A stretch of 34,371 nucleotides of DNA from IMG/VR virus record IMGVR_UViG_3300045988_078968; one strand, 5' to 3'. This document shows, one piece after another, positions 4,794 to 29,894 of the stretch. The notes under the pieces are model-generated. The model saw only the letters and a program-made list of their open reading frames with translations, did no database searches and was not told where the DNA came from. This stretch comes from a virus. The position numbers and the translations under genes were made by a program. Numbering within the stretch: the stretch's first letter is position 1; every line of letters begins with the position of its first letter.

Positions 4794-5153
4794 ATGAAAC
4801 TGAAGATTTACACAGACGAGAGCTTTTCCACCGTCCGAGAAGTGCGGGAAGTGCCCCGCATGAAAGTGCCCTACCGCACGGCTGAGGCGGTCCTGGGCCT
4901 GTTTGTCGATATGGACCTGAATCATATGGACACCAACAAGGTCCTGGCCGTCGTGCTGAAAAACACCCAGCATATTACCGCCGTCGTCCGGGCCACGTTC
5001 GGCCTGCCCGAGGAGGACCTGCCCTTTATCGACCTGATGGAGCTGAGCGACCTTGCCCGGGAAATTATCACCTACGTCATGGGCAAAATCGCTGAGTTGG
5101 GAGCCGGAGACGATGCCCCAAACGCCCAGGCGCAGGCGCAGGCACAGGCCTGA
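4794..5153 (+). CDS. Tail assembly chaperone, G-like short product
   Basis: 119 aa ORF between the major tail and tape measure genes, preceded by AGGAGG. Confidence 0.8.
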   Translation: MKLKIYTDESFSTVREVREVPRMKVPYRTAEAVLGLFVDMDLNHMDTNKVLAVVLKNTQHITAVVRATFGLPEEDLPFIDLMELSDLAREIITYVMGKIAELGAGDDAPNAQAQAQAQA

Positions 5154-5383
5154 CGCTTGCGCAAAACTGGCACGACATCAAGCTGGCACTGTGCACAGCC
5201 TACCCAGGACTTGACCCCATCCGCCTGCTGGACTATCCCCTGACCGACGTTCTGGACCTGATGCAGCAGCACCTGGATCATGTGCAACGCTCACGGAAGC
5301 AGGCTGCGGGCTCCCGCAGCCACAGACCCGTGAAGGACAGCGGGGAAGTAATTTACAGGCAGGCCGGGGATGACTGGTTTTAA
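4794..5383 (+). CDS. Tail assembly chaperone G-T fusion made by -1 programmed frameshift at 5117-5123
   Basis: The -1 frame is open from 5096 to TAA at 5381-5383. It encodes ...LTLAQNWHDIKLAL...AGDDWF and ends just before the tape measure start. Confidence 0.7.
5117..5123 (+). promoter_or_regulatory. Slippery heptamer C CCA AAC (X XXY YYZ) for the -1 frameshift
   Basis: In the zero frame the codons read gcC CCA AAC. A possible stem, caggc (5127-5131) with gcctg (5148-5152), starts 4 nt downstream. Confidence 0.65.
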
Positions 5384-5400
5384 CGAGGAGGTGAGGACGC

Positions 5401-8295
5401 ATGGCAACGGAAGAAGTAACCACAAAATTAAATATTGACATAACACAGTTCAAAAAGGCTTTGTCTGATGCAAACCGCTATATCCGTATGGCTGGCAGCG
5501 AATTCGACGAAGCTTCCGCCGGAATGGACAAGTGGAGCGATAGCACCGACGGCCTGAAAGCCAAAATCCAGCAGCTGAACAAGGTGCAGGATGCCCAGCA
5601 GGTCATTGTGGATGCCCTGCAGCAGGAATATGACAAAGTGGCCGCTGAACAAGGGGAGAGCTCCAAGGCTGCCCAGGAAATGGCCATCAAGCTGAATAAG
5701 GCAAAGGCCGCCCTGACCAAAACAGGGGCAGAACTGCAGCACTATCAGCAAAAACTAGATGACGCTGAAAAGGGCACCGAGGACACGGACAATGCTACTG
5801 GAAAAATGTCCAAGGAATTGGACAAGGCTTCCTCTGCCGCAAAGGACACGGGAAAAGCCACCGGACAAATGTCTACTGCTTTCGACAAGGCTGGAAAGGC
5901 TGCCGGTACCCTGGTTAAAAACCTGGCGAAAATCGCCGGGAAAACGGTGGTGGCCGGTATCAAAGGCATTGCCGCTGCCTCCGGCGCTCTGGTGACGGCT
6001 TTCCTGGCCAGCGGCGAGGCATCTAAGGAGTACATGGTCAACATGGGCAAGCTGGACACGGCTTTCACCCAGAACGGCCACAGCGCCGAAAATGCGCAAA
6101 AAGCATACACCGACCTTGTGGGAATTCTGGGCGAAACCGACCAATCCGTGGAAGCTGCCAACCATCTGGCCAAACTAACTGACAACGAGCAGGACCTGGC
6201 AAAATGGACCGGTGACATTCTGCCCGGCGTTTTCGCTACCTTTGGTGACAGCTTGCCCATTGAGGGCCTGACTGAGGCGGCCAATGAGACCGCCAAGGTT
6301 GGCCAGGTAACTGGCCCGCTGGCCGACGCCCTGAACTGGGCAGGCGTATCTGAGGACGCTTTCAACGATTCCCTGGCCGCCTGTAGCACGGAGCAGGAGC
6401 GGCAGGCTCTGATTACCGAGACCTTGGTGGGGCTCTACGGCGACGCTGCGGCGGCCTACAAAGAAACCAATGCCGAAGTGATTCGGTCCAACCAGGCAAA
6501 TGACGCATGGATGAAGTCCATGGCGGGTGTGGGGCAGGCGGCTCTGCCGATTACCTCCACCCTGAAACTCATGGGGGCGGCCATTCTGGACGACCTGCTG
6601 CCCAATATTCAGTTGCTTGGCACGTCTTTCAACGATGCCCTGAACGGCTCCAAAACGGCGGCCACAGAAATGGGCAACGCCGTGGGTAGCATTCTGCAGC
6701 AGCTGGGCCAGAAAATCGTGGCGGCCATTCCCACCATCCTGACCGTGGGCGGCTCCATCGTCGCCAGCCTGGTGCAGGGCATCATCACCGCCGCCCCTGA
6801 CATCGGTAACGGAGTAACCCAGATCATTCAGTACCTGATCCAGGCGGCCCCGCAAATGCTGGTTGCCGGGGCATCCCTGGTGCAGTCTCTGGTTGGTGCC
6901 TTTGCTTCAAGTCTGCCGCAGCTGCTGGCTGCGGGTGGCCAGATGATTTCCCAGCTCCTGGACGGCATTGTTTCCGCCGTTCCCAATGTGCTGCAGGGGG
7001 CCGTTTCCGCCGCCGGTGCATTCGTGCAGGGGCTACAGACCAACCTGCCCATTATCCTGGCAAAAGGTGCAGAGCTGATTGGCAAACTGGGCGAGGGCAT
7101 CCGCACGGCGCTGCCGGGCCTGATTTCCCAGGCTCTGGATGTCATCATGAATTTTGCAACAACTCTGTATGACAATGCGCCGACGCTGATCAATACAGGC
7201 TTTGACCTGCTGAGCAACCTGGTGCAGGGCATCCTGGATGCTATTCCTACCCTGCTGGCCAAGGCCCCGGAGATCATCAGCAAGTTTGCCAATATCATCA
7301 ATGACAATTTCCCGACCATCCTGCAGAAGGGCGTGGAATTGATATGGCAGATCATCAAAGGCTTGATTTCCGCTATCCCTACCCTGATCCAGAATATCCC
7401 GAAAATCATTTCGGCCATTGTGGACGTGTGGAGCGCCTTTAACTGGGTAAATCTGGGGAAAAACGCCATTAAGATGCTGAAAAACGGCATCACTGCCATG
7501 ACCGGCGCAGTGAAGACAGCCGGAAAGAATGTCCTGAACTCTCTGACCACGGCGCTGCAATCTCTGCCTGGGAAGCTGCTGGAATTGGGCAAGGGCGCAA
7601 TCGGCCAGATGCGTAACGGTATTACTTCCATGGTGGGAGCGGTCCGGTCTGCGGGTGGAAATGTCTTGACGGCAATCGTCAATGCCATTACAACCCTGCC
7701 CGCAAAGTTGCTTGCGCTGGCCAAGAAAGCCGTTGGAAATATCGGTTCTGGAATAAGCAGCGGAATCGGATTGCTGCGGTCAAAAGCCACTGAAATCATA
7801 AGCACCATTACCAATACCCTGGCATCCCTGCCGTCCAAAATGATGGAAATCGGTAAAAATGCAATCAAGGGCATTATTGACGGCATTGGCTCCATGGTAG
7901 GCGCACTTTATGACAGTATCAAGAATGCGCTGAGCGGCCTGGTTGATAAGGCAAAGCAGGCGCTTGGAATCAATAGCCCATCCAAAGTCCTACGGGAACA
8001 GGTTGGCCGTTGGATTCCCGCCGGTGTGGCTGCTGGCATTGACAAATACAGCAATGTGGCGGACAAGGCAATGGTTGACATGGCTAAGGGAGCCGTTGGC
8101 GCTGCCAATGCCGTCCTGTCTGACAGTAGCATAGACTTTCCTCCCGGCCCAGCAGGAACCGGCGGAGCAGCAGGCACTGGCAGCCGTGGAGGCGTTACCT
8201 ATGTGTATAACCAGACCATTAACAGCCCCAAGGCCCTGAGCCGGAAAGAGATTTACCGTGATACCAAGGATGCCCTGCGGTTTGCAACGGCGTAA
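5401..8295 (+). CDS. Tape measure protein
   Basis: 964 aa, Ala/Gly/Leu-rich and helical, preceded by GAGGAGGTGAGG. It sits after the chaperone pair and has four 44-aa tandem repeats near the C-terminus. Confidence 0.9.
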   Translation: MATEEVTTKLNIDITQFKKALSDANRYIRMAGSEFDEASAGMDKWSDSTDGLKAKIQQLNKVQDAQQVIVDALQQEYDKVAAEQGESSKAAQEMAIKLNKAKAALTKTGAELQHYQQKLDDAEKGTEDTDNATGKMSKELDKASSAAKDTGKATGQMSTAFDKAGKAAGTLVKNLAKIAGKTVVAGIKGIAAASGALVTAFLASGEASKEYMVNMGKLDTAFTQNGHSAENAQKAYTDLVGILGETDQSVEAANHLAKLTDNEQDLAKWTGDILPGVFATFGDSLPIEGLTEAANETAKVGQVTGPLADALNWAGVSEDAFNDSLAACSTEQERQALITETLVGLYGDAAAAYKETNAEVIRSNQANDAWMKSMAGVGQAALPITSTLKLMGAAILDDLLPNIQLLGTSFNDALNGSKTAATEMGNAVGSILQQLGQKIVAAIPTILTVGGSIVASLVQGIITAAPDIGNGVTQIIQYLIQAAPQMLVAGASLVQSLVGAFASSLPQLLAAGGQMISQLLDGIVSAVPNVLQGAVSAAGAFVQGLQTNLPIILAKGAELIGKLGEGIRTALPGLISQALDVIMNFATTLYDNAPTLINTGFDLLSNLVQGILDAIPTLLAKAPEIISKFANIINDNFPTILQKGVELIWQIIKGLISAIPTLIQNIPKIISAIVDVWSAFNWVNLGKNAIKMLKNGITAMTGAVKTAGKNVLNSLTTALQSLPGKLLELGKGAIGQMRNGITSMVGAVRSAGGNVLTAIVNAITTLPAKLLALAKKAVGNIGSGISSGIGLLRSKATEIISTITNTLASLPSKMMEIGKNAIKGIIDGIGSMVGALYDSIKNALSGLVDKAKQALGINSPSKVLREQVGRWIPAGVAAGIDKYSNVADKAMVDMAKGAVGAANAVLSDSSIDFPPGPAGTGGAAGTGSRGGVTYVYNQTINSPKALSRKEIYRDTKDALRFATA

Positions 8296-13025: not shown

Positions 13026-13850
13026 ATGGCAGTTAAAACGTATCAAAAAGCGAATCGCATTCAGCTGACGGAACATTTTAACTCCCGGGAATTCCGCTGC
13101 GGCTTGGGCAGGCCCAGCAATTGCACCACAACCCTGATTGACAGCGACCTGGTGGCGGGCCTGGAAAAGATACATAAGCGCTGCCGGGAACTCCGGGGCG
13201 GGAATGTGACCATCACCATCACCAGCGGCTACCGCTGCCCGGAATATAACCGGAGCGTGGGCGGGGCCGTCGGCTCCTACCACAGCCGTGGCATGGCTGC
13301 GGACATCGTGGTGGGGGGATTCAAGCCCCGAGAGATTGCAGGCATTGCCGAAAGCCTGGGCTTTAAGGGTATCGGCCTGTATGAGACAGACAAGGACGGT
13401 CATTTTGTCCATGTGGACACCCGGACCTATAAATCTTTCTGGTACGGCCAGGCCCAGGCCCCACGCTCCACCTTTGGCGGAATCTCTGCCGTTTCACCTG
13501 CAAGTCCAGGCACGTCTACCACGACCGGCAGCGGCTACACCCTGCGCCAGTTTATCAAGGATGTGCAGCAGGTCTGTGGGGCCGCCGTGGACGGCGTGGC
13601 AGGCCCTGACACTTTGGCCCATACCGTCACCATATCCGCAAGCAAAAACATTTCCCATCCCGTCGTCCTGGCCGTCCAGAAACGGCTTGCCGCCTTGGGC
13701 TATTCCCAGGTAGGCACCACCGACGGCGTGGCGGGCAGCAAGTTCACCGCCGCCCTGAAAGCTTTCCAGGCGAAAGCCGGATGCAGGTACCAGGACGGGG
13801 AAGCCACCAAGGGGGCAGAGACCTGGCGCAAGCTGCTGGGTATGTCCTAG
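13026..13850 (+). CDS. Endolysin: peptidase M15-like domain plus C-terminal peptidoglycan-binding repeats
   Basis: The N-terminal half has Zn-peptidase-like motifs (SGYRCPEYN...SYHSRGMAADI...HVD). The C-terminal half resembles PG_binding_1 (VDGVAGPDT... and TDGVAGSKF...). Confidence 0.8.
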   Translation: MAVKTYQKANRIQLTEHFNSREFRCGLGRPSNCTTTLIDSDLVAGLEKIHKRCRELRGGNVTITITSGYRCPEYNRSVGGAVGSYHSRGMAADIVVGGFKPREIAGIAESLGFKGIGLYETDKDGHFVHVDTRTYKSFWYGQAQAPRSTFGGISAVSPASPGTSTTTGSGYTLRQFIKDVQQVCGAAVDGVAGPDTLAHTVTISASKNISHPVVLAVQKRLAALGYSQVGTTDGVAGSKFTAALKAFQAKAGCRYQDGEATKGAETWRKLLGMS

Positions 13851-14953: not shown

Positions 14954-15310
14954 ATGGCAAGTCTAAGACAAGCAGCGCAGAACGTACTGGGCGCTGCACG
15001 AGATGGTATCCTCTGGTTCGCCGTCTGGAAAGATGGCCGTGGATGGTGCAGCAGTGAATTTTATGGAATCGACTACGACGAACGCACAAGCACCGCAAAA
15101 ATTGGGGACCAGGAAGACCTGGACGAACTGAAAGAAATCCTGTCCACAGACCCCAATGCAATTATGGTAAACAGCTATTATCACAATCTGGGAGCCTTTG
15201 ACGGATACCCACTCACACGGGATGATCTGGCCACTTTTATCCGTTGGCAGTATGAGCTTCAAAGCGCCAACCTGAAAGACTTTTTAGAAAAATCTGTGCT
15301 AGTTGCATAA
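14954..15310 (+). CDS. Hypothetical acidic protein (moron-like, between the lysis and integration modules)
   Basis: 118 aa ORF preceded by AAAGGA. No family was recognised. Confidence 0.6.
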   Translation: MASLRQAAQNVLGAARDGILWFAVWKDGRGWCSSEFYGIDYDERTSTAKIGDQEDLDELKEILSTDPNAIMVNSYYHNLGAFDGYPLTRDDLATFIRWQYELQSANLKDFLEKSVLVA

Positions 15311-15327
15311 TCATCAGCATCTGATGA
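15311..15327. promoter_or_regulatory. 17-bp palindrome TCATCAGCATCTGATGA (copy 1 of 2)
   Basis: Inverted 7-bp arms directly upstream of the small HTH gene. It matches 29046-29062 at 16 of 17 positions. Confidence 0.6.
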
Positions 15328-15381
15328 ACCACAGATCGCAGGCCCGAATATGGACACATTGCACAAAAAGGAGAAATGAAC

Positions 15382-15564
15382 ATGGGAGACAAATTGAAAG
15401 CCGCCCGGCAGGCGGCAGGCATGACCCAGGGACAGCTTGCCGCCGCCATTGGCTGCACCCAGCGGGATATAAGCAGGTGGGAATCCTGCAAAGTGGAGCC
15501 CGGCGTGCTGACTGTCAAGAAGATGGCCCAGGCATTGGGCTGTAGCATGGACGACCTTGTATAG
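15382..15564 (+). CDS. Small XRE-family HTH protein (60 aa)
   Basis: AAGGAG 8 nt upstream of ATG 15382. The HTH signature is MTQGQLAAAIGCTQRDISRWE. Confidence 0.8.
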   Translation: MGDKLKAARQAAGMTQGQLAAAIGCTQRDISRWESCKVEPGVLTVKKMAQALGCSMDDLV

Positions 15565-15767: not shown

Positions 15768-17309
15768 TCAAAGCCGCATGAATACAGCCAGATCAAAGTC
15801 TACACCGTTCCGCTGCCGGTTTGTTGGGTCACTTTCCTGGGCGGAATAGTCGATATGATCAATCACCATTTTCAGCGCTTTGTTTTGTGCTTCCAGGGTG
15901 GCGGTATCATCCCGCAGCAAACGGATGGCGTGGCGTAATGCTGCCACACGCTCTGCGTAGTCAACGGACTGCGGCAGGGCGCTTTTTGTTTTATAGATAG
16001 CTGCCTGGCATTCGTCCATCTTTTCCCGGAGTGCCTTGTTTCGCCGCTCAAAGACTTCCTGTGGGTAGTTCGGATTTGTTTCCAGCAGGTCATACTGCCG
16101 TTCCTCCTGGGCACGGTAGTCCTCCATCTGCTTTTCCAGCTTGGCAAGGAGCCGCTGCTGAATCTTCCGGGCGTCACCGTCGCCGTTCTTGATTCTGGCC
16201 AGCAGCTGGGGCAGGTGCTCTTTCTCCAGGATCACCAGCAGGCTTTCCACAATGTCCTCCCGCTTGGCTGACTTATAGCAGCGTGGCCTGGTGCGGCACT
16301 CTATCCGGTCTGCGGCGTGTTTGTACGGGTGGTGTATCATTCGGTTCCCGCACTTTTTGCAGACCAGCAGGCCCGCCAGCGGGTTCACAAGCTCTTTGCT
16401 AGGGTCTATCCTTGGGTTACGTGCCACAAGGGCCTGAGCGGCTTTCCATTCATCCCGGGAGATGATGCCGGTATGTTTACCCTCCGCAATGATTATATCC
16501 TTTTCTGGCTGCGCCAGCGTCTTTGTGACTATCCTTCCGTTTTCAAGCACCTGGGTTTCCTTCTTCTGGTTAAAAGCCACATACCCGGCATAATGTGGAT
16601 TGCGCAGCATGACCCGGATGGTGTCCTTTTTCCACTTGTCAATCCGTGCAGGCTTGACGCCCATTTCATTCAGGCGGTCCGCAATGCGCAGCGGCGTGAG
16701 CTGCTCCTGCGTGTACCATTTGAACACAAGGCGCACAGCAGCCGCCTCTGCCTCATTTATTTCAAGGGTGTGGTCTTTCCCTATCTTCACTTTATTATAG
16801 CCGTAGGGCGGCGTATTGCCGATGTAGCAGCCTCGTTTCACAGCGGCCACACGGCCACGGAAAAGAATCTCTTTGGTGTACTCCAAGAAGTCGTTGCCCC
16901 GGAGCAGCTCATCCTTGAAAAATTTCCGCTCCATTTTGTTTTCCAGGTCATACACCATGTAAGGCGTGGCAACCAATGACCGGCTGAACCGGAAGCTGTC
17001 TATAATCCGGGAGCAATCGGCCAGGTCTCCACGGCTGAGCCGGGAGGGCTCCATGCAGACCACACCGGCCACAGCAGGGTCCTCTATGCGGGCCAGCACG
17101 GCCTTGATTTCGTGGCGGGCGTCAATGGATTCACCGGAGACGATTTCCCGGTAGATGTTTTTCTCCGGTATCTGGCTGCCGATTTCCCGCTGGCACCATT
17201 CCTGCAGGATGTTTTCGTGCTTGGCAAGGACCTGCTCCACCGTTTCGTTGGGATCATCCTGCCTTGACTTTCTCAAATACATTAACCATGTTCCGCTTCT
17301 CTCTATCAT
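15768..17309 (-). CDS. int: Large serine recombinase (integrase)
   Basis: Resolvase-type N-terminus (YLRKSRQDD), recombinase domain, Cys4 zinc ribbon (CKKCGN...CRTRPRC) and coiled-coil tail. AAGGGGGA precedes ATG 17309; GTG 17351 is an alternative start. Confidence 0.9.
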   Translation of the reverse strand: MIERSGTWLMYLRKSRQDDPNETVEQVLAKHENILQEWCQREIGSQIPEKNIYREIVSGESIDARHEIKAVLARIEDPAVAGVVCMEPSRLSRGDLADCSRIIDSFRFSRSLVATPYMVYDLENKMERKFFKDELLRGNDFLEYTKEILFRGRVAAVKRGCYIGNTPPYGYNKVKIGKDHTLEINEAEAAAVRLVFKWYTQEQLTPLRIADRLNEMGVKPARIDKWKKDTIRVMLRNPHYAGYVAFNQKKETQVLENGRIVTKTLAQPEKDIIIAEGKHTGIISRDEWKAAQALVARNPRIDPSKELVNPLAGLLVCKKCGNRMIHHPYKHAADRIECRTRPRCYKSAKREDIVESLLVILEKEHLPQLLARIKNGDGDARKIQQRLLAKLEKQMEDYRAQEERQYDLLETNPNYPQEVFERRNKALREKMDECQAAIYKTKSALPQSVDYAERVAALRHAIRLLRDDTATLEAQNKALKMVIDHIDYSAQESDPTNRQRNGVDFDLAVFMRL

Positions 17310-17358
17310 TCCATCTTCCCCCTTGGCTGTGGTTTTCCACAGCTTTTTCACACTCTGT

Positions 17359-17835
17359 TTATCTGCTTATATTTATAAATCCTACATTGTCGTTCAACTC
17401 ATCCACGATAAAGGCCGCCAGGAGCACGGCCAGCAGGACGCAGACGATCACAGCCAAAAAGGCAATGATCTGCTTTTTCCACTTCATCAGGGATTCCTGC
17501 TTTGCAATCCTGGTCCGCAGCTCCTCCATCAGATGGGTGTCTGCCTCTGCCTGCCCGGCTTGTGGCGGGCTGCATGACATTTCCCCGCTGTTCCCCACCA
17601 GGGCGCACAGGATGGGCGACAGGGTGGAATAATTCACGTCCCGCCGGGAGCCGCAGAAAAAGGCGTCAACCGTGCCCTTTGGGATGCCGGACCGTTCGGC
17701 CACGTCCGCATTGGTCAGGCTCTGGAAGTCTTTCCGGGCCCGCAGGAAGTCCCGGATTTCGGCCATGTTCATGATATACAGGTTCGGGTGGCATTCTTTC
17801 CCCAATTTCTCACATTCGATACACTTTTCAAACAT
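17359..17835 (-). CDS. Membrane-anchored Cys-rich HTH protein, upstream of and closely coupled to int
   Basis: GGGGAGG precedes ATG 17835. The protein has N-terminal CIECEKLGKEC, an HTH-like segment (LTNADVAERSGIPKGTVDAF) and a C-terminal TM helix (IIAFLAVIVCVLLAVLLAAFIV). Confidence 0.6.
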   Translation of the reverse strand: MFEKCIECEKLGKECHPNLYIMNMAEIRDFLRARKDFQSLTNADVAERSGIPKGTVDAFFCGSRRDVNYSTLSPILCALVGNSGEMSCSPPQAGQAEADTHLMEELRTRIAKQESLMKWKKQIIAFLAVIVCVLLAVLLAAFIVDELNDNVGFINISR

Positions 17836-17934: not shown

Positions 17935-18696
17935 TTAGTCAGATACCGGTAATTCAGTAACGGACAGATGCACAAACAAATTTGTTTTTCCAGGCTCCAA
18001 AGAGTAGAACGTTTCTCCACTGATAGCATCCTCTTCTTTTTCCAGAAGCTTGTACGGGCCGCCGCCAATCTGGCAGGTGATTCCCGCAATGCGCTTCTCC
18101 TGAATACATTTCAGCAGGTGGGTGCAGGAACCGGATTTGATATAACCAACGTGTTTCCCGTCGGCCATGACCTTGATAGCGTTCTGGTCATAGGCGTTGT
18201 CCGGTTCTGGAACCAGTTCAATCTTGGGCATGAGAAAATCGTATTTCCAGATTTTTTCTGTATCGTATAGCATGAAAACGCCGTCAATCAACTGCTTTTT
18301 GCTGAGACTATATTCTGGGTTTTCCTGTGCAAAGCTCATAATGTTCTGCTCGTAATGCGTGACACCCGCAACCTTGTAAGTTTTCACTGTTCCGACAGGC
18401 ACCGCTGTGGCGGGCTGCTCCTCTGCCTGTGCAGGTTCTCCGGCTGCTTCTGGCTGCTGATCCTGTGGCGCTGCTGCTTTTTCCTTTGGATTTGCCAGGG
18501 CACAGGCCAGTCCGAAAGCGATAGAAAGCACTACTGCCAGAATCGCCGCAATGTCAGAAACAATACCGTCCTTTTTCAGCACCCCAAACACAGCATAAAC
18601 AATGGCGAAGAAGATGAACGCAAGCCCAGCACCCAAAACGAAAGCAATAATCCCCACCAAGGCCTTTTTGACGGTTTCACGCATTTTCGCAAACAT
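17935..18696 (-). CDS. Membrane-anchored HIRAN-domain protein
   Basis: Two N-terminal TM helices and a Pro/Glu/Ala linker, then a HIRAN-like core (VAGVTHY...LVPEPDNAYDQNAIKVMADGKHVGYI). The start lies 14 nt after the repressor stop. Confidence 0.7.
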   Translation of the reverse strand: MFAKMRETVKKALVGIIAFVLGAGLAFIFFAIVYAVFGVLKKDGIVSDIAAILAVVLSIAFGLACALANPKEKAAAPQDQQPEAAGEPAQAEEQPATAVPVGTVKTYKVAGVTHYEQNIMSFAQENPEYSLSKKQLIDGVFMLYDTEKIWKYDFLMPKIELVPEPDNAYDQNAIKVMADGKHVGYIKSGSCTHLLKCIQEKRIAGITCQIGGGPYKLLEKEEDAISGETFYSLEPGKTNLFVHLSVTELPVSD

Positions 18697-18710: not shown

Positions 18711-19073
18711 TTACAATTCACGCCGATGCAGCAGCCACTTGGCAAAGCCGATAATTTCGGCGTTCTCCGCATCGGTAAATTCTACATGACCAAGCTCCCG
18801 GTGCCACTCCTGCATATGCCGGAGCTGCATTCCCTCTGAGGCCACCATGGAGACCACCGTGGATTCTTCCCACTTGTCCAGCCCAATCAGATGGGCGGGG
18901 GATGTGTCCAGGGCAGCGGCCAGCGGCTCCAGCATGTCGGCACTGAGCTTTGTAATGCTGCCGGATTCATACCGGTACACCGTGGAGCGGTCTTTTCCTA
19001 TTTTGTTCGCCAGGGTATCCGCTGACATTTTCAGCTCCACCCGGCGCTGCTTGATCCTCTTTCCAATGTCCAT
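18711..19073 (-). CDS. XRE-family HTH repressor-like protein (no peptidase domain)
   Basis: GGAAGGGGTG precedes ATG 19073. The HTH is MSADTLANKIGKDRSTVYRYE. Confidence 0.8.
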   Translation of the reverse strand: MDIGKRIKQRRVELKMSADTLANKIGKDRSTVYRYESGSITKLSADMLEPLAAALDTSPAHLIGLDKWEESTVVSMVASEGMQLRHMQEWHRELGHVEFTDAENAEIIGFAKWLLHRREL

Positions 19074-19244
19074 CTTTTCACCCCTTCCGTATACACCAGT
19101 CCGGGATATGTCGCAGGAATGCGACAAAAACCATACTGGAAAATGTTTCCAGTTTACAGAAAATTTCCCCTGGTGTTAAAATTCCCAATGTACAAGACGT
19201 ACAACGCAATTGTTCACCTTGCGCAATAGAAAGGAGTACCAAAA

Positions 19245-19394
19245 ATGACAGCCATGCAAGAACTATTATCCTACATATCCGCAATGACACCGGAGCAGGT
19301 GGAGAAGGTTATTTCTCATCTTCCACAATTGATTTCAGCACTCGAAGCGCAAGGGCAGCCTGTTCCTCCGATAGAGATTGAGCAAACGCCATAA
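19245..19394 (+). CDS. Possible 49-aa ORF overlapping the 3' end of the 19309-19656 repressor gene in antisense
   Basis: AAAGGAG 8 nt upstream of ATG 19245. The translation is MTAMQELLSYISAMTPEQVEKVISHLPQLISALEAQGQPVPPIEIEQTP. It may be a shadow of the opposite strand. Confidence 0.25.
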   Translation: MTAMQELLSYISAMTPEQVEKVISHLPQLISALEAQGQPVPPIEIEQTP

Positions 19395-19656
19395 GCGCCC
19401 GCTTATTTGCTGTAAGCCCATCGTTTTCGGTGGGCTCTTTTTCTTCCTCTATAAGGTCCGATTTCAAAATCCCGAAGTAGTCGGCCATGATTTCAATTCG
19501 ATCAATTCGAGGATATTTGCGGCCATTTACCCATTCCGAAACCGTCGAATACGGAAACCCCCATATATCGGCAAGCTCCCGCCTGTCTTTTCCACTTTTT
19601 TCGATGTACTTCTTTAGATTCTTTGACAGTATTTCTTTGTTCCCAAGTGAGCTCAT
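19309..19656 (-). CDS. XRE-family HTH repressor (CI-like position at the divergent switch)
   Basis: GGAGGTGAT precedes ATG 19656. The HTH is RRELADIWGFPYSTVSEWVNG, and the gene is divergent from the early operon. Confidence 0.8.
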   Translation of the reverse strand: MSSLGNKEILSKNLKKYIEKSGKDRRELADIWGFPYSTVSEWVNGRKYPRIDRIEIMADYFGILKSDLIEEEKEPTENDGLTANKRALMAFAQSLSEEQAALALRVLKSIVEDEK

Positions 19657-19684
19657 TGGTATCACCTCCATTTCATTCCTTTTT

Positions 19685-19713
19685 ATATTACACCCATAGT
19701 GTAAAAAAATCAA
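19685..19713 (-). promoter_or_regulatory. Leftward promoter for the CI-like gene
   Basis: On the - strand: TTGATT (19708-19713), a 17-nt spacer, then TAATAT (19685-19690). Confidence 0.55.
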
Positions 19714-19729
19714 TAATAAAATAAAAAAA

Positions 19730-19746
19730 TTACGCTTTAGGGGTTG
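19730..19746. promoter_or_regulatory. Degenerate operator copy overlapping the -35 of the rightward promoter
   Basis: ttacgcttta followed by a diverged right half-site. Confidence 0.35.
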
Positions 19747-19772
19747 ACAACTACAAAAAGTTATTGTAATAT
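19744..19772 (+). promoter_or_regulatory. Rightward early promoter
   Basis: TTGACA (19744-19749), a 17-nt spacer, then TAATAT (19767-19772). An operator follows immediately. Confidence 0.6.
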
Positions 19773-19776
19773 AATG

Positions 19777-19793
19777 TTACGCCGAAAGCGTAA
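19777..19793. promoter_or_regulatory. Operator palindrome TTACGC-N5-GCGTAA
   Basis: ttacgccgaaagcgtaa, directly downstream of the -10 element. Confidence 0.6.
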
Positions 19794-19848
19794 TAGACGG
19801 ACGGAAAACAGTTAATTTTATAGCACGCTTTAATTTTTTTAATCACAA

Positions 19849-29150: not shown

Positions 29151-29894
29151 ATGGAACTATTACAAGGGGACTGCATGGAGCTGCTGCCAGAAATCCCGGA
29201 GAAATCCGTGGATATGGTGCTTTGTGACCTACCCTATGGCACCACGGACTGCAAATGGGACCATGTTCTGCCTATGGAAACCTTGTGGCGGGAGTACCGC
29301 CGCATTCTCAAGCCCAACGGGGCGGCGGCGCTTTTCGCTGCCCAGCCATTCACAACGGCCTTGATTGGCAGCAATCGGAAGGAATTCCGATACTGCTGGT
29401 ATTGGAAAAAGAACTATAAGACCGGCGCACCCTTTGCCCGGGTGCAGCCTATGCGCTGCATTGAGGATATTTGCGTATTCTACCGGAAAAAGCCGACCTA
29501 CAACCCGCAGGGGCTGGTGAAGCTGGATAAGCCAATATACAAAGCGCCCGATCCAACCAGCATTTACCAGATGCGAGGCAATGGCAGCATTCAGCTGTAC
29601 ACGAACTACCCGCACCACCTGCTGGAATTTGACGGCGTGGCAATGGGGCCGAACCGAAAGCATCCGACACAGAAGCCCGTGCCCCTGCTGGAATACCTGG
29701 TTAAGACGTACACCAACCCAGGGGACACCGTTCTGGACAACTGCATGGGTAGCGGCAGCACCGGCGTGGCCTGCATCCGCACAGGCCGCCGCTTTATCGG
29801 CATGGAGAAAGACCCACAATTTTTCCAGGTGGCACAGAAACGCCTGAAAGAGGAATCCGACAAGGACAACCTTGTGGCGGGCCAAACTGAATAG
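29151..29894 (+). CDS. Orphan DNA methyltransferase (N6-adenine/N4-cytosine type, beta-class motif order)
   Basis: Motif IV-like CDLPYG near the N-terminus and motif I-like VLDNCMGSGSTG near the C-terminus. No nuclease gene is adjacent. Confidence 0.85.
   Translation: MELLQGDCMELLPEIPEKSVDMVLCDLPYGTTDCKWDHVLPMETLWREYRRILKPNGAAALFAAQPFTTALIGSNRKEFRYCWYWKKNYKTGAPFARVQPMRCIEDICVFYRKKPTYNPQGLVKLDKPIYKAPDPTSIYQMRGNGSIQLYTNYPHHLLEFDGVAMGPNRKHPTQKPVPLLEYLVKTYTNPGDTVLDNCMGSGSTGVACIRTGRRFIGMEKDPQFFQVAQKRLKEESDKDNLVAGQTE

Follow-up and report, generated by a model that had tools for sequence, protein, structure and literature searches.

The 34,371-nucleotide IMG/VR record IMGVR_UViG_3300045988_078968, which we refer to as the window (meaning this whole stretch of DNA), is a complete-looking genome of a temperate siphovirus. 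It encodes a capsid protein, an M15 endolysin (13026-13850), TerL, a DnaC-like loader and a DNA methylase; the 964-residue open reading frame (ORF) at the tape-measure position had no Pfam match. The subject of this analysis is the ORF at 17935-18696 on the minus strand, whose product joins two transmembrane (TM) helices to a HIRAN domain and is referred to here as TM-HIRAN. It is very probably a ThaL-like membrane HIRAN protein encoded in the lysogeny module of the phage. The gene and the regions of its product are as follows.

17935-18696 (stop codon included), minus strand: coding sequence of the ThaL-like TM-HIRAN protein, 253 amino acids (ORF list and sequence; Pfam HIRAN above the gathering cut-off)
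18493-18663, minus strand: N-terminal membrane hairpin, with hydrophobic cores at about residues 12-36 and 49-68 and a short loop between them
18391-18492, minus strand: disordered, acidic tether rich in Pro, Gln, Ala and Glu (residues 69-102), with a low predicted local distance difference test score (pLDDT) and varying across the family
17953-18390, minus strand: extended HIRAN domain (residues 103-248), made up of the HIRAN core, a helical insert (112-138) and a long C-terminal beta-hairpin (203-248)

The ORF starts with an ATG codon that follows a TAGGAG ribosome-binding site by 7-8 nt and the stop codon of an XRE-family gene (18711-19073) by 14 nt. In the AlphaFold2 (AF2) model of the protein the two N-terminal helices occupy residues 2-36 and 45-67, and their Kyte-Doolittle hydropathy peaks at 2.6-2.7. 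Residues 71-97 are of low complexity and disordered (pLDDT 40-47), and the alignment shows that the length and sequence of this tether vary freely among family members. The C-terminal domain is modelled with a pLDDT above 90 over residues 103-248. An earlier reading of the gene, made from the letters and ORFs alone (the sequence-only reading), had described two N-terminal TM helices, a low-complexity linker and a HIRAN core, as well as tight coupling to the XRE gene across a 14-nt gap. The AF2 model, hydropathy, Pfam and Foldseek bear out this anatomy, and the gap is as it was described.

That reading had also proposed a profile search for HIRAN as a check, and Pfam HIRAN (PF08797) matched the window protein at 28.7 bits against a gathering cut-off of 24.7 (E 1.2e-6), over the core only, at residues 158-198. 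When the AF2 model was compared with the Protein Data Bank (PDB) using Foldseek, the top 12 matches were all to crystal structures of the HIRAN domain of HLTF, DNA-bound ones included, and were followed by the bacterial protein lp_0118, at probabilities of 0.99-1.00. The best matches were the HLTF structures 4s0n, 4xzg and 6kcs (probability 1.00, TM-score about 0.48 normalised to the target), plus lp_0118 (3k2y). HLTF HIRAN was also the sole match of the family profile among PDB sequences (E 7e-5).

A word-indexed search gave 86 homologues of the window protein with identities down to 33%, all of them from metagenomes or metagenome-assembled genomes (MAGs), and in 83 of the 86 PF08797 was already present as a precomputed annotation. 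An exhaustive search with residues 101-253, with the matches clustered at 50% identity, gave 1087 clusters at E<=1e-3, 635 at E<=1e-10 and 72 at E<=1e-30. The product of the window ORF is a genuine HIRAN protein, far beyond what chance would give, with a domain of 145 residues that is kept in 635 clusters. Among genomes that have a name, the closest matches come from MAGs of Oscillospiraceae and Faecousia (39-50% identity), and the named hosts are Bacillota, comprising Oscillospiraceae, Faecousia, Faecalibacterium, Lachnospiraceae, Soehngenia and the hosts of Streptococcus prophages. The matching PHROGs families (4654, 6600, 8043 and 4721) are all labelled as of unknown function, an NCBIfam scan of the TM-HIRAN protein gave nothing meaningful, and a fold search of BFVD returned only uncharacterised viral HIRAN or DUF4236 proteins.

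The likeness to HLTF HIRAN (PDB 4s0n, 4xzf, 5bnh and 6kcs) lies in a shared fold, a shared core motif and the alignment of the Asn and Asp residues of the 3'-OH pocket. HMMER paired window residues 159-206 with HLTF 'VALQRDPNNPYDKNAIKV...VGHLKK', and the motif EP(D/N)N-x-YD-x-NAIKV...VG(Y/H)(I/L)K can be aligned between the family and HLTF. On what we take to be the HLTF numbering, N90, N91, Y93 and D94 correspond to window residues D166, N167, Y169 and D170, H110 to Y185 and K112 to K187. The 3'-OH pocket is presumably formed by N91 and D94, and the HLTF pocket residues N91, D94, Y93 and Y72 align with N167, D170, Y169 and Y115 of the window protein. N167 and D170 are retained in 55 of 56 lineages of the family and Y185 in 54 of 56, and K175 is almost invariant too. 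This conservation is consistent with retained binding of 3' ends and is not proof of it. The two domains differ in their setting. In HLTF, a eukaryotic fork-remodelling enzyme of the SNF2 type, HIRAN is one soluble domain, whereas the window domain is a stand-alone one of bacterial or phage origin, is held at a membrane by a tether and has two additions, a helical insert of 25 residues and a long hairpin at its C-terminus.

Four residues that were invariant in the first alignment, E164, H182, C191 and H193, were considered as a catalytic or metal site and rejected as a family feature, since only 39 of the 56 lineages keep C191 and only 32 of the 56 keep H193. These two residues form a Cys-x-His motif (about 18126-18118) where the helix that follows the VGYIK strand begins. 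All 52 sequences of the Clostridia clade have the motif and the pneumococcal ThaL-like proteins lack it, which makes it a clade-specific feature.

The gene lies in a leftward lysogeny block, in which a CI-like XRE gene is followed by a 235-bp AT-rich spacer, a second XRE gene (XRE120), TM-HIRAN, a gene for a helix-turn-helix (HTH) protein with a TM segment (HTH-TM), and a large serine recombinase. The other features of the block are given below.

19309-19656, minus strand: CI-like XRE repressor, 115 amino acids, heading the leftward lysogeny block (Pfam HTH_3, phrog_2967)
19135-19179, minus strand: candidate promoter-like site with a palindrome (consensus scan; -35 TTAACA at 19179-19174, -10 TAAACT at 19156-19151)
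18711-19073, minus strand: XRE-family HTH gene XRE120, 120 amino acids, first gene of the two-gene insert (Pfam HTH_3, E 2e-12)
17359-17835, minus strand: HTH protein with a C-terminal TM segment, 158 amino acids, a context gene outside the insert (weak HTH matches; ends 8 nt upstream of the integrase ORF start)
15768-17351, minus strand: large serine recombinase (integrase), end of the lysogeny block (Pfam Resolvase, Recombinase, Zn_ribbon_recom)

The sequence-only reading had taken XRE120 and TM-HIRAN for an inserted cassette, and comparison with related phages agrees. In four sister phages (L167-L170) a cro gene diverges from a CI-like gene that is followed by HTH-TM and the serine recombinase, with nothing equivalent to XRE120 and TM-HIRAN, even though the HTH half of their CI-like protein is 91-93% identical to that of the window. 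The pair is missing too from the phages with the closest integrases (60-72% identity). Because sister phages lack them both, XRE120 and TM-HIRAN constitute a two-gene insert.

A relative that does carry the pair is L004, an integrated prophage whose integrase is 96% identical to that of the window and abuts host genes for peptidase M32 and pheS/pheT. XRE120 (95%), HTH-TM and the integrase are 94-96% identical between the two, and TM-HIRAN merely 72%. A sliding comparison places this difference within the gene. Identity is 64-80% over 18507-17921, which encodes the linker and the HIRAN domain, and 90-99% on either side of it, over 19407-18508 (XRE120 and the TM hairpin) and leftwards from 17920. 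The rate of synonymous substitution (dS) in 18507-17921 is 1.58, compared with 0.12-0.33 in the flanks, and the ratio of nonsynonymous to synonymous rates (dN/dS) is 0.16. The HIRAN segment is therefore under purifying selection, and its divergence combined with the low dN/dS shows that recombination has joined a different, functional allele of the HIRAN domain to an anchor that stayed the same. A swap relative to L004 is also seen in the HTH half of the CI-like gene (about 19408-19845), at about 51-54% nucleotide identity.

The candidate promoter site upstream of XRE120 contains a perfect 8+8 palindrome, ACTGGAAA-ATG-TTTCCAGT (19135-19153), which overlaps the -10 element and is followed by a T-run. 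The arrangement ACTGGAAA-N3-TTTCCAGT occurs once in the window; L004 has the same stems with a different loop. Together the palindrome and the promoter-like site could be an autoregulated promoter/operator or else a weak terminator. The matches of XRE120 to RstR-, DicA- and CapH-like models were all under the cut-off. In relatives the CI-like gene is divergent from a cro-like gene. The 158-residue HTH-TM protein has an N-terminal CxxC...C motif and a weak XRE-like HTH, profile scans gave it no family match beyond weak HTH hits, and a counterpart 30-32% identical stands at the same position in L167-L170; it may be a membrane-anchored regulator linked to this integrase type. Elsewhere in the window, an LPD15-domain protein (Pfam E 5e-22) and a 62-residue ORF with a putative HTH-like sequence lie at 14954-15564, between the endolysin and the integrase end, in what is likely another cargo region, and an orphan N6/N4 DNA methyltransferase is encoded among the late-early genes at 29151-29894.

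To see where such genes lie in general we assembled 111 family loci from annotated phages, contigs encoding individual homologues (ENA, JGI, Logan and NCBI assemblies), IMG/VR and GTDB genomes, which collapse to 54 lineages at about 70% identity. An integrase follows downstream on the same strand within 2.5 kb in 38 of the 54 lineages (10 serine and 28 tyrosine). In 5 further lineages a serine recombinase lies upstream instead, on the same strand and in 4 cases within 0.9 kb, and in 4 lineages the flanks are too short to judge the position of an integrase. The sequence-only reading had named the lack of a conserved association with prophage immunity regions as part of what would speak against it, and the association holds, with an integrase within 2.5 kb at 89 of the 111 family loci, compared with 2 of 50 distant generic HIRAN loci that the same scans brought up.

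An HTH gene stands upstream on the same strand in 37 of the 54 lineages, within 150 bp in 20 of these. Many of these upstream genes encode a full CI repressor, with HTH and Peptidase_S24 domains, and in several lineages such a gene ends 12 nt before the HIRAN gene. Since a CI repressor gene is directly upstream, the HIRAN gene should be read from the repressor transcript in the lysogen. The sequence-only reading had treated the HTH gene and TM-HIRAN as a pair. The pairing is present in the window, but XRE is not a universal partner, as elsewhere the HIRAN gene follows an S24-type CI or an ImmR/ImmA pair (directly after ImmA), or has no adjacent HTH gene at all.

Cargo seems to gather readily in the slot that separates repressor from integrase, which acts as a hotspot, as seen at L007, where two tandem HIRAN paralogues stand ahead of a serine integrase (6001-7419 of that locus), and at L015, where a BrnT toxin gene and a small partner ORF lie between the HIRAN gene and a tyrosine integrase (5101-5641). 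Modular exchange of the kind seen between L004 and the window, together with the tandem paralogues of L007, fits genes involved in conflict. Two TM-less members lie elsewhere. One, in Lacrimispora saccharolytica An817 (L020, 5914-6429), is an exception to the integrase-adjacent rule and is found at the opposite end of its prophage, beside the endolysin and abutting host dprA and topA. The other (P0070, on at least 24 contigs; L009/L010, 6001-6747) is outside the lysogeny module, just upstream of HNH and terminase genes, in a phage with VapE and SNF2.

The class to which we assign the gene, thaL, was named recently in pneumococcal prophages by Kwun et al., in a single mention that gives the name only, with no functional test. 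The window protein resembles ThaL as described there in having TM segment(s), a low-complexity linker and HIRAN, and in occupying a slot in the lysogeny module beside the integrase. It is homologous to the TM-HIRAN proteins of the pneumococcal prophages IPP29 and Javan340 (tblastn 36.6% over 119 residues, E 3e-11; family hidden Markov model E 2e-19), and these proteins, which fit the description of ThaL, serve as stand-ins for the phiRMV8 protein in the comparison. Unlike the window protein, the pneumococcal proteins have HIRAN at the N-terminus and the hairpin at the C-terminus, an inverted order, and their host class is Bacilli rather than Clostridia. The IPP proteins accompany ImmR/ImmA and a tyrosine integrase, whereas the window protein accompanies short XRE repressors and a serine integrase. 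Literature searches combining HIRAN with superinfection exclusion, phage defence or thaL gave no functional study and no link between HIRAN and exclusion.

A precedent for a membrane protein in this slot may be found in Lactococcus phage Tuc2009 (L177), where orf2 lies between cI2009 and int (1339-1860) and encodes what we take to be Sie2009, a membrane superinfection exclusion (Sie) protein shown experimentally. Ltp and P22 SieA are other membrane Sie proteins of lysogeny modules. The product of Tuc2009 orf2 has an N-terminal hydrophobic or TM segment followed by a tRNA_anti-like oligonucleotide/oligosaccharide-binding (OB) fold (Pfam E 3.5e-11). Like TM-HIRAN, it is small and membrane-anchored, and its gene is accessory, variable among related phages and placed between repressor and integrase on the repressor strand; the two proteins have no relation in sequence or fold. 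The idea that Sie2009 is a hidden HIRAN protein was rejected, since orf2 carries the OB fold and no HIRAN. Assuming its identity as Sie2009, it is likewise an anchor joined to a fold of nucleic-acid-binding type. Known Sie domains are thought to act at the outer face of the membrane or within it, whereas the HIRAN domain of the window protein is predicted to be cytoplasmic.

This prediction comes from the layout of the anchor. The N-terminus of the window protein, MFAKMRETVKK, contains four K/R residues with a net charge of +3 and is predicted to lie inside. In most members with an N-terminal anchor, two TM helices lie close together, joined by a short loop and flanked on both sides by stretches rich in K/R. 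In 6 lineages, the pneumococcal ones included, HIRAN comes first, without a signal peptide, and the hairpin is at the C-terminus. Because both domain orders place HIRAN inside, it is predicted to be cytoplasmic on a flexible tether, and a HIRAN domain facing the cytoplasm would fit the recognition of DNA ends. The N-terminal part varies freely across the family, where it may be a two-TM hairpin, a TM2 domain, DUF4236, a zinc ribbon or no anchor, and the C-terminal domain is well conserved. As the anchor is interchangeable, and relatives without a TM segment occupy the same slot, HIRAN appears to be the working part of the protein and the TM segment its tether. A holin identity was considered and rejected, since the holin-like match scored 14.2 bits against a cut-off of 28.4 and the gene stands in the lysogeny block, not in a lysis cassette with the endolysin (13026-13850).

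In our proposal TM-HIRAN is an accessory gene ('moron') of the ThaL type, carried by a temperate phage with a gut Clostridia host. It would have arrived along with its XRE regulator, the two genes forming one insert that separates the CI-like repressor from the integrase in the leftward lysogeny operon. Its product would lodge in the cytoplasmic membrane as a helical hairpin whose two ends both stay inside the cell, and a flexible tether of about 35 residues would keep the HIRAN domain just beneath the membrane. By analogy with HLTF HIRAN, this domain would bind free 3'-OH ends of DNA, so linear DNA would be intercepted on entry, be it the genome of a superinfecting phage or possibly transforming single-stranded DNA. 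The integrated prophage would be unaffected because it has no free ends, and the outcome would be superinfection exclusion or defence of the lysogen. By analogy, the membrane protein that we take to be Sie2009, at the cI-int position of Tuc2009, offers a supporting precedent for the slot. Capture of incoming 3' ends at the inner face of the membrane, as a mechanism of exclusion or defence, is the likeliest of the functions considered here, and it is put forward tentatively, as a serious possibility at somewhat less than even odds.

The sequence-only reading had noted that it knew of no such defence system. This stands in that a PADLOC scan places TM-HIRAN in no PADLOC system, and needs amending in that the class already has a name. 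The nearest PADLOC candidate is PDC-M03, which consists of a HipA-like kinase and a HIRAN protein ('HipI'). The HIRAN core of the window protein weakly matches the model for the latter, PDC-M03B (E 5e-6, residues 158-203 only); there is no adjacent HipA kinase gene in the window, and the PDC-M03B match showed no sign of a membrane anchor. The observation made by that reading is confirmed throughout, and its interpretation as exclusion or defence is partly supported.

Several points weigh against the proposed barrier. Placement in no PADLOC system, with a match limited to the HIRAN core, is the first of these. The positive-inside signal of the window protein is modest, and a membrane anchor is absent in 17 of the 54 lineages, so that placement at the membrane is not obligatory. 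The equivalent of the base-stacking Y93 of HLTF is variable, being Y in 22 of 52 sequences and otherwise H, Q, E or N. A generic binder of 3' ends would have no obvious need for allele swapping, and the exchange seen with L004 could be neutral mosaicism. The phenotype, expression and DNA binding of family members are inferred throughout, the naming paper (Kwun et al.) having supplied a name only. Finally, szaL and spaL, alternative genes at the same pneumococcal slot, modulate prophage activation in response to competence and cell density, and not exclusion (Kwun et al.).

This last point also favours the best-surviving alternative, in which the protein modulates the lysis-lysogeny decision of its own phage. 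A membrane-held HIRAN domain would then sense DNA ends (from damage, stalled forks or imported single-stranded DNA) or some membrane-linked cue, and would tune induction, excision or burst timing rather than act on foreign DNA. The location of the gene in a regulatory block beside repressors and integrases is in keeping with such a role, as is the function of eukaryotic HIRAN in the replication-stress response (PMC11706625). However, the gene is dispensable, since close relatives with the same repressor and integrase type do without it. It is found with three unrelated types of switch (short XRE, S24 CI and ImmR/ImmA) and with both classes of integrase, which is the pattern of cargo and not of a switch component, and the member in L020 lies at the opposite end of its prophage by the endolysin. 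We consider a role in the phage's own switch unlikely.

The layout of sensor plus TM effector is common in defence, and the gene position predicts expression in lysogeny, so TM-HIRAN could also be pictured as a single-protein abortive infection system. HIRAN would sense phage DNA ends or replication intermediates, upon which the hairpin would oligomerise and permeabilise the membrane, and the infected cell would die. The hairpin does give holin-like matches (Phage_holin_3_6, E 0.048; holin PHROGs, E 0.05-0.06), but these are under every threshold. The anchor, moreover, is interchangeable, taking the form of an N- or C-terminal hairpin, TM2, or a DUF4236 or zinc-ribbon region ahead of the TM segment, and its absence from 17 of the 54 lineages in the same slot argues for a tether and not an effector. 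Abortive infection is on this evidence improbable.

A further alternative, which we regard as quite improbable, is that HIRAN grabs the 3' end of single-stranded DNA as it leaves the uptake channel and so reduces deletion of the prophage by homologous recombination. Its predicted position, facing the cytoplasm beside the membrane, would suit this, and transforming DNA enters the pneumococcus 3'-end first. Also in its favour, PMC12637031 describes pneumococcal prophages, among them carriers of thaL, as engaged in an arms race with transformation. Against it, the paper reports that transformation deletes phiRMV8, which carries thaL, with about the same efficiency as it transfers a point mutation. 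The majority of the family, moreover, is in gut Clostridia (Oscillospiraceae and Lachnospiraceae), where natural transformation is not established. It is very improbable that XRE120 and TM-HIRAN are a toxin-antitoxin-like addiction pair in which the HTH protein represses or neutralises a membrane-toxic partner and so stabilises the prophage, for although they form a two-gene unit with a 14-nt gap and a palindrome over a promoter-like site, and XRE120 weakly matches the antitoxin families MqsA, PezA, HipB and HigA (all far under their cut-offs), the partnership is not conserved, the HIRAN gene elsewhere following CI-S24 or ImmA or having no adjacent HTH gene, and the HIRAN protein has no toxin-antitoxin match in PADLOC or NCBIfam.

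Returning to the proposed barrier of captured DNA ends, the window gene is a clean, testable candidate from a gene class that is named but uncharacterised, and not a demonstrated system. To our knowledge, what exclusion and defence factors recognise is either a protein of the phage or, in its DNA, a sequence or modification. If the proposal is true, TM-HIRAN would be the first such factor to recognise, at the membrane, a universal chemical feature of entering DNA, the free 3'-OH end. It is conceivable, though somewhat unlikely, that the ThaL family as a whole is a widespread single-gene prophage barrier of a new mechanistic type, gripping linear DNA of any kind by its leading end as it passes through the membrane, be it a superinfecting phage genome or, in competent hosts, transforming single-stranded DNA, and guarding the prophage both against rival phages and against curing by recombination. 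The family is easily testable, as a single gene is involved and homologues are present in pneumococcal lysogens amenable to genetics. Prophages of Clostridia that abound in the human gut (such as Faecalibacterium, Faecousia and Lachnospiraceae) often carry it, and in these bacteria competition between phages is poorly understood. Even if the role of the protein were regulatory, it would provide the first function for a bacterial stand-alone HIRAN domain.

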